From: Promethearchaeota archaeon
GTDB lineage: Archaea > Asgardarchaeota > Lokiarchaeia > Sigyniarchaeales > SOKP01
Direction: 5' to 3'
DNA length: 32,000 nucleotides
Assembly (NCBI GenBank): GCA_030606485.1
Contig: JAUWGH010000008.1
Span: forward strand, 120,001 to 152,000
Shown: positions 3,883 to 7,796 of the stretch, piece by piece
How positions within the stretch are numbered: the stretch's first letter is position 1
How the letters are laid out: each line of letters opens with the position of its first letter
Position numbers and translations under genes: made by a program
Notes under the pieces: generated by a model
Seen by the model: the letters and a program-made list of their open reading frames with translations, nothing else
The model's database searches: none
Told to the model about the DNA's origin: nothing

Positions 3883-4245
3883 TTATTTTTCCAATGGTTT
3901 TTTAAAGATATAAGTATCACTTTTTATTATAATTTTTCCAGGTTTGGATAATATATTAATACATTCGTTTAGATTTTTCTCGATAAGTTCTCGTGCGACT
4001 TTTGGATTTCTTGGATGGAGATCAATATATATAATTCTACTTTTTAACAGGATATCGTTTTTTAAACTTAAAAAATCTGAATCAAAAGTAATTATTATGG
4101 CATTCTCATTTAATGCTATTTCAGCAACTTCTCCATTGGTTATTCCAAGTTTGTTTAGATCTTTTAAAGTTTTTACGTCATATCCAATATTAAGAATTAT
4201 ATTTTTAATTGAATGAGGTACATTTTCATCAAGTAAGAATTTCAA
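3883..4245 (-). CDS. DUF5615 PIN-like protein (putative toxin, VapC45-like)
   Basis: 'MKFLLDENVP' N-terminus and 'AIIITFDSDF' PIN acidic motifs; directly downstream of a DUF433 gene. Confidence 0.85.
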   Translation of the reverse strand: MKFLLDENVPHSIKNIILNIGYDVKTLKDLNKLGITNGEVAEIALNENAIIITFDSDFLSLKNDILLKSRIIYIDLHPRNPKVARELIEKNLNECINILSKPGKIIIKSDTYIFKKPLEK

Positions 4246-4248
4246 GTC

Positions 4249-4494
4249 TTAATGAACCTCTTCTCTAAATTTCTCTTTTAGATCAATTTGAGAAAGGTAT
4301 TTTTGAGCATCTTGGCCTAGTTTAATTATTTTAAGAAGAATTTTTCGATTTAAAGTAGGATATTCTTCTAATATTTCTTCTATTGAATAATTGAGTCCAA
4401 TTAATTCGAAAATTAAATCAACTGGAATTCGAGTTCCTTTTATTACAAGTTTTCCTCCAAGAATTTGAGGATTGTATTCAATAATATCTGACAT
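4249..4494 (-). CDS. DUF433 protein (putative antitoxin, VapB45-like)
   Basis: 'PQILGGKLVIKGTRIPV.LI.ELI..NYSIEEILEEYPTL' is the DUF433 signature; 3-bp gap to the PIN gene. Confidence 0.9.
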   Translation of the reverse strand: MSDIIEYNPQILGGKLVIKGTRIPVDLIFELIGLNYSIEEILEEYPTLNRKILLKIIKLGQDAQKYLSQIDLKEKFREEVH

Positions 4495-4571: not shown

Positions 4572-4656
4572 AATATATCCAGAATTGTGAATAATAGAAT
4601 AAAAGAAGAATAAAGAATTTTTTAATCCGATTTTTTCATTTCAAATTTAACATTAC
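4572..4656. repeat. Direct repeat copy B: last codons of meaB plus downstream region
   Basis: 73/85 identical to 2029..2113; contains the meaB stop (4622..4624) and a minus-strand pyrimidine-rich tract. Confidence 0.9.
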
Positions 4657-5599
4657 TAAATAAATCGTGAACCATATCGTAGATTTTAAATTTCTTACCT
4701 TGTAAAACAGAATTAGAAATTTTATTTAGATCATCTTCACTTATTAGACTTTCTAGAACCTTTCCTATTTTAGATGATAGTAATTCTTCTATTTTATATG
4801 CAAATCTATGTTTTTTCTTTTCTTTCAGCAATTCAGATAGCTCAAGGTGTTCTTTATGATCCATTATCTTTTCTATTAAAGAATTAACTCCTTCTCCGGT
4901 AATAGAATTTGTCATTATAACTGGTGCCCTCCAGCCACTCTGGGTAATAGTTGCATCGTCAAGCATCATTTCCATTTGCACAACAATATCTTCCCCCCCT
5001 AAATCCTTTTTATTTACAACATAAACATCTCCAACTTCAATTATTCCGGCTTTTTGTATCTGTATCGAATCTCCATACCCAGGAACCATTATTACAACTG
5101 TAGTATAAGCTAAATTATAAATATCAAATTCGGATTGACCTACACCTACAGTTTCAATTATGATAAAATCCATTCCAAAAGCTTCATACAATAAAGTTAT
5201 ATCAAAAACAGCTCGTGAAATACCACCTTTATAACCTCTTGATGCAAGGCTCCGTATAAATATATTTGGATGTAAAGAAATATCTGTCATCCTTACTCTA
5301 TCTCCTAGAAAAGCTCCTCCAGTAAAAGGTGAGGTTGGATCTACAGAAATAATTCCGATTGACTTTCCATTTTCTAATAAAATCTTTGAAAAAGCATTAA
5401 CTAAAGTGCTTTTTCCTACGCCTGGAGACCCAGTTATCCCAATAATATAAGAATCGTTTTCTGAACTATCAAAATTATTAAATATGTTAGTAGTGGTTTC
5501 AGGATTATTTTCAACAAGAGTTATAAGCCTTGCTAAGGCAATTTTATCCTTTTTTTTAAATTTCTCAATTAAAAGATCAATGTCATAATTTCGTTTCAA
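4622..5599 (-). CDS. meaB: MeaB/ArgK GTPase, chaperone of adenosylcobalamin-dependent mutases
   Basis: 'ARLITLVEN', P-loop 'GITGSPGVGKST', 'VDPTSPFTGGAFLGDRVRM', 'ETVGVGQSE', 'NKKD'; located in the mutase operon. Confidence 0.95.
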   Translation of the reverse strand: MKRNYDIDLLIEKFKKKDKIALARLITLVENNPETTTNIFNNFDSSENDSYIIGITGSPGVGKSTLVNAFSKILLENGKSIGIISVDPTSPFTGGAFLGDRVRMTDISLHPNIFIRSLASRGYKGGISRAVFDITLLYEAFGMDFIIIETVGVGQSEFDIYNLAYTTVVIMVPGYGDSIQIQKAGIIEVGDVYVVNKKDLGGEDIVVQMEMMLDDATITQSGWRAPVIMTNSITGEGVNSLIEKIMDHKEHLELSELLKEKKKHRFAYKIEELLSSKIGKVLESLISEDDLNKISNSVLQGKKFKIYDMVHDLFSNVKFEMKKSD

Positions 5600-5674: not shown

Positions 5675-6105
5675 TTATTTTTTAGTATTTTCTACAATAA
5701 AATTAACAACATCTGCAACGACAGTTCCAGGACCATAGACATTTGCTACACCCATTTTTTTTAATGTGGGAAAATCCATCACCGGAATTACACCACCAAC
5801 AAGTATTAAAAAGTGATCTTTTACGCCTTTTTCTTTTAGGAGATTTATGACTCTTTCAGTATATACTAAGTGAGCCCCTGAATGCATACTTAAACCAATA
5901 ACATCAACATCTTCGCTAATTGCAGACTCAACGATCTGTTCGACATTTTGAAACCCTCCAAATATAACTTCCATACCAGCGTCTCTTAAGCCTCTTGAAA
6001 CAACTACGCCACCTCGCCAATGCCCGTGAGCATTTTATCCTAAGAACTTTAGAATAAATCTATGCCGGGCTTGGACATTAAAACTCTTATTTTTCTCTCA
6101 CTCAT
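5675..6105 (-). CDS. Cobalamin-binding small subunit of acyl-CoA mutase, split by a 32-nt intron (exon 1 6105..6060, exon 2 6027..5675; 132 aa spliced)
   Basis: ATG 6105 has a GAGGTG SD and reads MSERKIRVLMSKPGI-D. The downstream frame reads GHWRGGVVVSRGLRDAGMEVIFGG...VIGLSMHSGAH...VGGVIP. Joined: ...KPGIDGHWRG..., the DxHxxG motif. The ORF track (5675..5974) misses the N-terminus. The unspliced exon-1 frame stops at TAA 6051..6049. Confidence 0.9.
6028..6059 (-). other. Candidate bulge-helix-bulge (tRNA-type) intron in mRNA, 32 nt
   Basis: mRNA folds as GCCCG/CGGGC exon helix, GCAU/AUGC 4-bp central helix, 3-nt bulges AGA and UCA on opposite strands, and a 10-bp intron stem UUUAUUCUAA/UUAGGAUAAA with loop AGUUC. 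Cleavage after bulge nt 2 on each strand gives AUA-G^AC-GGG-CAU (Ile-Asp-Gly-His). Confidence 0.88.
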
Positions 6106-6111
6106 ACTTTA

Positions 6112-6117
6112 CACCTC
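6112..6117 (-). promoter_or_regulatory. Shine-Dalgarno (GAGGTG) of the intron-containing small subunit gene
   Basis: GAGGTG lies 6 nt upstream of ATG 6105, just after the large-subunit stop at 6123. Confidence 0.8.
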
Positions 6118-6122
6118 ATTCT

Positions 6123-7796
6123 TTAAATAGCAATTGGGGGCTCCCAGATTCCCCAAACTTCGCGATAAACATCGCATATTTCACCAACTGTTGCTCCTTC
6201 TTTTGTTATTTCCATCATAATGGGCATTACATTCTCTTCTTTTTCACATACTTTTCGTAATTTATCAAAAAGTGTTTCTAATTTTTTGTTATCTCTTCGC
6301 TTTCGCAAATTAATAATCCTTTCTTGTTCAATTTTTACTGCTTCTTTATTAGTTCTAAATACAGTTGTTGTTTGATCATAAGGAACTGGAAATTTATTGA
6401 CTCCAAGCACGATTTCTTCTCCTTTTTCAATACGATTTTGCCTACGCATAAAAGCATCTCTCATTTCCTTATATAACCAGCCTGTATCTAATGCTCTAGC
6501 AATATTTCCAACCTTTTCGATTTTATCTATATAAGACAACACTTTTTCTTCGAGCTCATCAGTTAGCCACTCAATAAAATAAGAACCCGCTAATGGATCA
6601 ATAGTATTTGGAACTCTTGTTTCATCTTGTATTACTTGTTGTGTTCTTAAAGCAAGTAAGACAGCTTCTTCAGAAGGCAAGCAAATTGCTTCATCATAAG
6701 AATTTGTGTGGAGTGATTGTACTCCGCCTAATGCTGCTTCTAAAGCTTGAATTGTTGTTCTTATTATATTTACATTAGGAGATTGAGCAGTTAAGGAGCT
6801 TCCAGCAGTTTGAACATGAAACCTAAATTCCATAGATCTTGGATTTTTTGCTTCGTATCTATCTTTTATTAATTTACTCCAAATCCTTCTTGCTGCCCTA
6901 TATTTAGCTATTTCTTCAAAGAAATCCTTATGAGCTGAGAGATGAAATGCAAGACGACTAACAAAATCATCAACTTTCCAACCTCTGTCAATTAAATTAT
7001 CAATATGAGAACATGCACTTGCAAATACAAATCCTAATTCTTGAATTGCATCAATTCCACCTTCCCTATAATTATATCCCGTAAAATTGATAGGATGCCA
7101 CCTTGGGACATTTTTTTGTGGTACACACCACTCAATTAAATCACAAGCTAATCGAAGAATATGATAAGGATTTACATTTTTATAAGGAACATATCCAACC
7201 GTCATTGTTAAGATATCATTTTGTGTTGTTCCCATCAATGCTTTAATATCAAGTCCACGCATTTTCGCCATATTATAATACATCGCACATACAGGTGCTG
7301 AAGTAAAAGGCTCAACTATTAATGCAACACTAACTTTATCTATTGGTAATCCTTCTGTAAGGGCAAACATACTGTCAATACAATATAATGGGACTCCTGA
7401 TGTTCCAACTTCAGCATCTCCGTCAGGATTAGTTGGATCTATACCATTAAATGTTAAAGCATCAACAGCTGCACTAAATCCAGTTTCTCCATGAGAATAT
7501 AAAAACTTCCATCTTTTATTAGTCTCTTCAGGTGTCCCATGCCCTGAAAACAGTCTCATAGTCCATAATTGTCCCCTATACATGTTTGGATATACTCCTC
7601 TGGTATAAGGAGTGTTCCCAGGAAAACCCACATCCTCTAAATAATTGCTCTTTACGTCTAATGGAGTGTATAAATTTTTTATTGGAATTCCTGAATCCGT
7701 AATAAATTTTATTTCGCGTTCTTTTGTATTTTCAAATTTTTTATCCCATTCTTGCTTCTTTTCTTTAATTTTTTCAAGGTAATTCTCATCAAACAT
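6123..7796 (-). CDS. Adenosylcobalamin-dependent acyl-CoA mutase, large (substrate-binding) subunit, methylmalonyl-CoA mutase family; substrate uncertain
   Basis: 'GFPG..PYTRGVYP.MYRG.LWTMR', 'QNDIL', 'RLAFHL..H.DFFEEIAKYRAARRIW', 'FHVQTAGSSLTAQ', 'GGVQSLHTNSYDEA..LPSE', 'DPLAGSYFIE', 'GVNKF', 'ATVGEI'. Confidence 0.95.
   Translation of the reverse strand: MFDENYLEKIKEKKQEWDKKFENTKEREIKFITDSGIPIKNLYTPLDVKSNYLEDVGFPGNTPYTRGVYPNMYRGQLWTMRLFSGHGTPEETNKRWKFLYSHGETGFSAAVDALTFNGIDPTNPDGDAEVGTSGVPLYCIDSMFALTEGLPIDKVSVALIVEPFTSAPVCAMYYNMAKMRGLDIKALMGTTQNDILTMTVGYVPYKNVNPYHILRLACDLIEWCVPQKNVPRWHPINFTGYNYREGGIDAIQELGFVFASACSHIDNLIDRGWKVDDFVSRLAFHLSAHKDFFEEIAKYRAARRIWSKLIKDRYEAKNPRSMEFRFHVQTAGSSLTAQSPNVNIIRTTIQALEAALGGVQSLHTNSYDEAICLPSEEAVLLALRTQQVIQDETRVPNTIDPLAGSYFIEWLTDELEEKVLSYIDKIEKVGNIARALDTGWLYKEMRDAFMRRQNRIEKGEEIVLGVNKFPVPYDQTTTVFRTNKEAVKIEQERIINLRKRRDNKKLETLFDKLRKVCEKEENVMPIMMEITKEGATVGEICDVYREVWGIWEPPIAI

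Follow-up and report, generated by a model that had tools for sequence, protein, structure and literature searches.

Splicing of a protein-coding transcript at a motif of the bulge-helix-bulge (BHB) kind has reportedly been shown by experiment for the cbf5 pre-mRNA of Crenarchaeota, in work by Watanabe in 2002 and Yoshinari in 2006. This intron of a pseudouridine synthase gene is patchily distributed, has undergone lineage-specific loss and causes gene prediction to fail, according to an excerpt of Yokobori 2009 (PMC2738675). In the literature that we searched, crenarchaeal cbf5 is the only archaeal pre-mRNA case and no BHB intron is described for an Asgard mRNA; where pre-mRNA is concerned, the cbf5 papers are still the only ones cited in a structural study of archaeal endonucleases from 2025. 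An earlier, sequence-only reading of the DNA analyzed here had named cbf5 as the established mRNA case and had known of no description of an Asgard example, and the searched literature agrees on both points. For tRNA genes, a census of Asgard introns records repeated gains in Asgard lineages (bioRxiv 10.64898/2026.10.13.758758); the excerpt of that preprint used here does not mention mRNA.

We analyzed a 32,000-nt stretch of DNA (the window) from a genome of 3.75 Mb in 13 contigs with 29% G+C (G000); the organism is found in cold-seep or marine sediments. Alleles of the locus under study, among them near-identical ones, occur in the 'Promethearchaeia archaeon' MAGs ABR01 and ABR05 (Asgard phylum Promethearchaeota), which bears out the Asgard host that had been proposed from the letters alone. 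The gene for the B12-binding small subunit of an acyl-CoA mutase is interrupted here by 32 nt, and we consider it highly probable (roughly 0.85), from comparison of the sequences set out below, that 6059..6028 is a tRNA-type BHB intron spliced from the mRNA by EndA and RtcB. Cleavage and ligation themselves we infer from the established biochemistry of these two enzymes.

The candidate intron resembles that of cbf5 in being short, bounded by a BHB and placed in a protein-coding gene of a host whose EndA is of a two-subunit type, and the two share a patchy distribution and the failure of gene prediction (for cbf5, in the excerpt of PMC2738675). They differ in that the gene affected here encodes a metabolic B12-binding mutase subunit and not an RNA-modification enzyme, and in that the host belongs to the Asgard/Promethearchaeota and not to the Crenarchaeota. 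Splicing of cbf5 was shown by experiment, whereas that of the mutase intron is deduced, and the presence or absence of the mutase intron tracks recombination tracts, with the intron in two non-neighbouring genera on the gene tree. Very probably, to go by its motif, the mutase intron is mechanistically of the cbf5 type, and what is new is the gene and the phylum. Archaeal tRNA and rRNA BHB introns have the same geometry and cut rule, and in them too half of the motif is exonic, but here the exon half consists of codons, and splicing would yield a reading frame instead of a folded RNA. XBP1/HAC1 mRNA undergoes cytoplasmic, stress-regulated splicing by the kinase/RNase IRE1, with RtcB or Trl1 as the ligase. 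The likeness lies in a protein endonuclease, a very short intron at paired stem-loop sites, an RtcB-type ligase and a change of frame that decides the active protein; the endonuclease, the motif and the stress regulation set it apart, and the analogy is a functional one only.

The mutase small-subunit gene and its predicted splicing motif

The interrupted gene has the mutase large subunit directly upstream and MeaB directly downstream, and relatives show the same three-gene order. The features of the operon, all on the minus strand, are:

6123..7796, minus strand: large subunit of an acyl-CoA mutase (methylmalonyl-CoA family), 557 aa (PF01642, 3.4e-166; TIGR00641)
6112..6117, minus strand: Shine-Dalgarno-like GAGGTG, ~6-7 nt before the ATG at 6105
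6060..6105, minus strand: exon 1 (46 nt), start codon ATG at 6105-6103; 15 whole codons and the opening base of an Asp codon
6028..6059, minus strand: candidate 32-nt intron, with predicted cuts between 6060 and 6059 and between 6028 and 6027
5675..6027, minus strand: exon 2, whose first two bases complete the Asp codon and are followed by GHWRGG; stop at 5677-5675
4622..5599, minus strand: MeaB-type G-protein chaperone of the mutase (PF03308, 5.5e-81; TIGR00750, 296.7 bits against a cut-off of 240.75)

Joining the two exons yields an open reading frame of 399 nt, 132 aa, starting MSERKIRVLMSKPGIDGHWRGG, and the unspliced frame reaches a stop after 18 codons. Translation thus reproduced the product length and the early stop given in the sequence-only reading, and the GAGGTG that it had placed before the true start is read at 6117..6112. 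The N-terminus encoded by exon 1, MxxKKIRVLMSKPGI, is the same as in intronless orthologues. Exon 2 matches TIGR00640 (acyl-CoA mutase C-terminal, B12-binding domain) with 115.7 bits against 57.45, and PF02310 with 64.7 against a cut-off of 32.1; the former match begins at profile position 14, so that the N-terminal strand absent from this match would come from exon 1. Exon 2 opens with the residues G-H, which line up with the cobalamin-loop G-H of solved mutases (2yxb_A 30-31, 1req_A 608-609), and only the splice junction puts together the DxHxxG loop (D-G-H-W-R-G), the cut falling inside the Asp codon. The TIGR00640 match and the position between large subunit and MeaB agree with the B12-binding mutase subunit originally named as the product.

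Public annotation presents this gene as truncated ORFs of 99 or 110 aa, calls that we found in the protein collection much as had been anticipated for automated annotation. The 132-aa product of this allele is not recorded in that collection, whose clusters hold 131-aa intronless congeners beside the 99- and 110-aa calls. A 123-aa entry, P0136, was considered as a cDNA of the spliced form and rejected; it comes from the genomic DNA of yet another intronless congener, the call having started at an internal ATG.

The genome carries a second, uninterrupted mutase small subunit (G000:C1:30522-30866) that is 48% identical and has a canonical GHDRG loop; the intron-bearing copy falls in a family-specific GHWRGG subfamily. 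A corrinoid protein of the methyltransferase type (PF02607 and PF02310; 8023-8664, minus strand) lies 230 nt upstream of the mutase operon, making two different B12-binding proteins neighbours. On the other side, at 3883-4494 (minus strand), two small ORFs of 81 and 120 aa are "overlapping-by-design", a pair that may be of the toxin-antitoxin type (DUF433-like and PIN-like).

The RNA from 6080 to 6010 was folded with RNAfold, and the proposed motif is both the minimum-energy (MFE) and the centroid structure. Its elements, all on the minus strand, are:

6017..6074, minus strand: complete hBHBh' splicing motif (MFE and centroid fold)
6074-6066 with 6026-6017, minus strand: outer helix (RNAfold)
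6065-6062 with 6033-6030, minus strand: central helix (RNAfold)
6061-6059, minus strand: 5' bulge, AGA
6058-6049 with 6043-6034, minus strand: inner stem, loop 6048-6044
6029-6027, minus strand: 3' bulge, UCA

The outer helix, CCAA+GCCCG/CGGGC(A)UUGG, has 5 bp and then 4 more beyond a 1-nt bulge, and the central helix has 4 bp (GCAU/AUGC), with the two 3-nt bulges on opposite strands. The inner stem comprises 10 bp, one of them G-U, and closes on a 5-nt loop. The bulges are flanked by an outer exon-exon helix and an inner intron helix, as in the strict definition of hBHBh'. Along the strand come an exon helix and the central helix, then the 5' bulge, the intron helix, the central helix again, the 3' bulge and finally an exon helix. 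This is said, following Marck and Grosjean in 2003, to be the order in archaeal pre-tRNAs whose intron lies at 37/38. The letters are exactly those on which a canonical BHB had been claimed, and cutting after the second base of each bulge, which removes the 32 nt, restores the frame and the DxHxxG loop as the claim had it. The fold energy of 6080..6010 is -23.4 kcal/mol (z = -3.2), a stability reached by 1 of 200 dinucleotide shuffles. Chance origin of the motif at 6074..6017 is unlikely, because alignment to intronless orthologues independently sets the intron ends, to within one base, and because even a far looser BHB definition (4+4+3 pairs) is rare in the genome, at ~5 matches per 100,000 position/length combinations (43,637 matches). 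A repeat search of the genome returned the intron once. The tip of its hairpin (UUCUAA AGUUC UUAG) has an exact 18-nt match in an A+T-rich stretch at G000:C1:332881-332898; no BHB was seen there, only a 5-bp hairpin. Across the whole window, no Rfam family attains its gathering score, and no tRNA was found. A group I or group II self-splicing intron was considered and rejected, the insert being 32 nt, against a ribozyme core of hundreds of nucleotides, and matching nothing in Rfam.

The enzymes that such splicing would call for are encoded in the genome, where the presence of endA and rtcB had been put forward as a check. There are two EndA paralogues, of 199 and 206 aa, both of them PF01974+PF02778 proteins in which an N-terminal domain accompanies the catalytic one, and one RtcB (PF01139). 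The EndA genes lie at G000:C10:~66737-67336 and C10:~670250-670867, that of RtcB on C6. ARAGORN calls introns in 24 of the 38 tRNA genes. Asgard EndAs are reported to be (alpha-beta)2-type enzymes, with an L1 loop that confers a broad substrate range (PMC5829648). In the mechanism that we propose, the operon transcript would fold so that the exon codons AAG CCC GGC AUA G and AC GGG CAU UGG, together with intron bases, build the hBHBh' motif. The two-subunit EndA would then cut after the second base of each 3-nt bulge, and RtcB would join the exons. The ribosome would read MSERKIRVLMSKPGID-GHWRGG..., a 132-aa subunit whose cobalt-ligating His loop would exist only in the spliced message. The predicted ligated RNA lacks 6059..6028 and joins GGCAUAG to ACGGGCAU, and the predicted tryptic peptide of the spliced subunit is VLMSKPGIDGHWR.

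Conservation, selection and alternative readings

Four distinct intron alleles were compared (G000, L034, G001/ABR01 and ABR05/L038), from two genera and with proteins 72% identical. Across them, 98.9% of pair cells are standard pairs. Six columns vary: two in the loop, the first two bases of the 3' bulge (UC, UU, CC or AU) and two in helices, namely a G-C pair of the central helix that becomes G-U and a U.U mismatch that ABR05 has in its inner stem. Four of these six fall on unpaired intron positions, which make up 8 of the 32, a modest enrichment (hypergeometric p ~0.02, by our own arithmetic). No two-sided compensatory pair change was found among the four alleles, so the compensatory stem changes for which the sequence-only reading had proposed to look did not appear; the alleles display conservation, not covariation. 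All of them use AAG CCC GGC AUA GAC GGG, giving five G-C pairs in the outer helix, and a codon set that permits all five pairs occurs in 1 of 35 intronless orthologues (median, three). To judge from these codons, the price of the structure for the exons is the use of rare synonymous codons rich in G+C.

An improbable alternative is that a 32-nt palindromic DNA insertion killed the gene, leaving a pseudogene in which the BHB-like fold is a by-product of the palindrome. The stop after 18 codons would be expected of it, as would annotation pipelines that call truncated ORFs only. The intact paralogous subunit also counts against our main reading, since the cell might tolerate loss of the intron-bearing copy. 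The pattern of substitution, however, is not that of a dead gene. A dN/dS near 1 had been named beforehand as a sign of one, and in exon 2 the ratio lies between 0.02 and 0.17 in three intron-bearing lineages: it is 0.17 between the intron-bearing G000 and G001, against 0.15 between intronless congeners, and 0.02-0.05 between ABR05 and its intronless kin. Codons 17-33, from the intron to the first in-frame ATG (GHWRGG...RDAG), differ within clades by 3-11 synonymous changes and by 0 amino-acid changes; between genera there are three amino-acid changes. The frame upstream of these 17 codons reads TAA AAT GCT CAC, and since none of the codons from the in-frame TAA to GGG is a start codon, it takes a join to exon 1 to have the 17 translated. 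Both exons are intact in all four alleles, in a 29% G+C genome where stops arise easily, and the neighbouring large-subunit and MeaB genes are intact as well. A single-copy insert is no spreading element. Cuts placed by the BHB rule reproduce the orthologue peptide exactly, and all intron alleles keep the helix-forming exon codons, neither of which a pseudogene would lead one to expect. By every one of these measures the gene appears alive, with purifying selection on both exons.

About as improbable, and if anything slightly more so, is a transcript that EndA cuts and whose exons are not productively rejoined, so that the BHB would shut off the small subunit as a switch for cleavage or decay. 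EndA is known to have substrates other than tRNA and rRNA, and a BHB in a 5' UTR is reported in Haloferax in an excerpt of PMC7714728; the ligated product is also not among the RNA contigs, which miss the junction. Against such a switch stand the exact restoration of the frame and purifying selection on both sides, unexpected if the downstream part were never translated in frame, and the RtcB present in the genome.

Translational recoding, in which bypassing or frameshifting would carry the ribosome over the 32 nt, is very unlikely. In phage T4 gene 60, bypassing leaves the RNA uncut and depends on a take-off codon that is matched by a landing codon. The mutase gene has a superficial likeness to it, in a short untranslated gap within the coding sequence, a stop shortly after the break and a stable hairpin at the gap. 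The codon pair is absent, however: no take-off/landing pair (GGC, AUA, GAU) lands in the GGG CAU UGG frame, and symmetric 3-nt bulges with a 4-bp helix have no role in bypassing. As for frameshifting, one shift cannot connect the two frames, since that of exon 1 ends at a UAA (intron bases 9-11) ahead of the point at which that of exon 2 becomes open (UAA, 21-23).

Presence, absence and exchange of the insert

The insert is found in the DNA of five assemblies: G000, G001 (= ABR01), metagenome contig JABUBO010000089.1 (99% amino-acid identity), ABR05 and Ga0114922_10000318. In ABR05 (= Ga0114922_10000318) it has the same place and the same length, in a gene whose exon 2 is only 72% identical. 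DNA that runs across the insertion, earlier suggested as a check, is provided by a Logan contig of the independent run X7, from another study, which spans 5778-6900 with no indel. With the same insert in all these assemblies and in X7, an assembly or sequencing artefact is scarcely credible, even for a genome that appears to be metagenome-assembled.

From 24 matching runs, three that are RNA or possibly RNA were compared with the locus. The X19 metatranscriptome yields a 333-nt contig of ~97% identity that covers only 6246-6572, in the large-subunit gene; X20, which is probably DNA, reaches only 6422-6601, and X24 gives no coverage. The X19 match weakly suggests natural transcription of a close relative's operon.

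An orthologue occurs in 106 of the 135 family genomes, and only those of G000 and G001 are interrupted at this site; ~100 family orthologues are precisely without the 32 nt. Within the genus, where four other genomes were compared, G001 has a 32-nt insert at the identical site, and G002 and G003 lack exactly these 32 nt. The latter two are 95% identical to G000 in exon 2 and 98.5% in the large subunit, and they read TCA AAA CCA GGT ATT GAT GGT CAT TGG, that is, SKPGIDGHW, the same peptide as in spliced G000. Alignment of orthologues, an approach already recommended from the letters alone, thus finds precise absence together with an identical junction peptide.

A maximum-likelihood (ML) tree of the mutase proteins (33 rows) requires at least three changes of intron state. 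G002 and G003 are nested between G000 and G001 (support 100/94), and ABR05 lies deep in another clade whose other members are intronless. Of the 63 differences between G000 and G002, 39 fall in columns -111 to -2 upstream of the intron, and the two are near-identical elsewhere. In this tract G000 matches ABR05 at 89 of 111 positions and its congener G002 at only 72 of 111; outside it, informative sites favour G002 by 166 to 7. Likewise, when ABR05 is set beside G000 and each of four sister sequences in turn, the 65 columns around its intron favour G000 by six to nil, and the sisters win by about three to one elsewhere. The tract limits were chosen after seeing the data, and the p-values (1e-3 to 1e-7) are indicative only. 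Over 5975-6230, G000 differs from its 97%-identical congeners G002/G003 (L006/L005) at 39 positions within the 110 nt upstream. A search for the donor of the divergent G002/G003 tract returned nothing closer than 75% among 120 loci, and the G002-type tract is about equally distant from every sequence compared.

Since presence and absence coincide with these tracts, we infer that the intron has been gained or lost between alleles by short-tract recombination. One intronless sister of ABR05, L039 (JABUBL010007435.1), keeps AAG CCC GGC AUC GAC at the site, codons that look like the footprint of a precise intron loss. One old gain may have been followed by many precise losses, or a short tract may have spread laterally; in both cases the events would be marked by recombination tracts.

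A second site in the same gene, six codons downstream and right after GHWRGG, is occupied in G016, of another genus, and in G080, close to ABR05:

L021 (G016:C69), ~1470-1500: 29-nt insert, beginning AAUUUUUGAG
L116 (G080:C85), after the GHWRGG codons, minus strand: 30-nt insert with an in-frame TGA, beginning AAUUUUUGAG

The same cut rule restores GG-IV at both. Their folds are relaxed and BHB-like; in that of G016 the 5' bulge is 4 nt long and the 3' site shows an internal loop.

Consequences and further candidate inserts

If the mutase message is spliced as we propose, tRNA-type mRNA splicing would not be confined to crenarchaeal cbf5, and it would extend to a gene of ordinary metabolism, in the archaeal lineage to which eukaryotes are closest. 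Asgard gene catalogues would then under-call such genes, and a 99- or 110-aa fragment lacking the cobalt-binding His would distort metabolic reconstructions. Natural alleles with and without the intron at 95% identity, and two sites within eight codons, make gain and loss of archaeal mRNA introns directly testable. The forced use of rare, G+C-rich synonymous codons would be a measurable cost and could explain where such introns can settle. A more tentative proposal, which we think doubtful as a whole, is that the same intron moved with its helix-forming exon codons from genus to genus, within one Asgard family, into the identical codon of this gene, by short-tract recombination or a homing-like route. 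It would be one of many so far undescribed EndA/RtcB-spliced mini-introns of Asgard protein-coding genes that prefer G+C-rich Gly/Pro motifs (P-loops, DxHxxG).

Genome-wide ab initio screens for BHB motifs and open-frame fusions gave like counts for the right and a deliberately wrong splice phase (2846 versus 2946, 993 versus 1019, 31 versus 28). Such a screen is therefore without power in a 29% G+C genome and says nothing on the number of mRNA introns. Two individual candidates in the genome are:

G000:C2:~142590-142621 (L118:791-822): candidate 32-nt insert in a DnaG-like primase, between GAIFGQ and TEGLL, with Toprim downstream
G000:C1:76174-76204 (L117:875-905): candidate 31-nt BHB in a MoxR-like AAA+ ATPase, with a CUGG/CCAG central helix and a 10-bp stem

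The DnaG-like insert forms a relaxed BHB (GGGC/GCCU central helix, AAA bulges) that is not the MFE fold. In the MoxR-like gene, removal at the BHB restores the Walker A motif, GEPG-TGKT, and exon 2 starts at PF00004 position 10.
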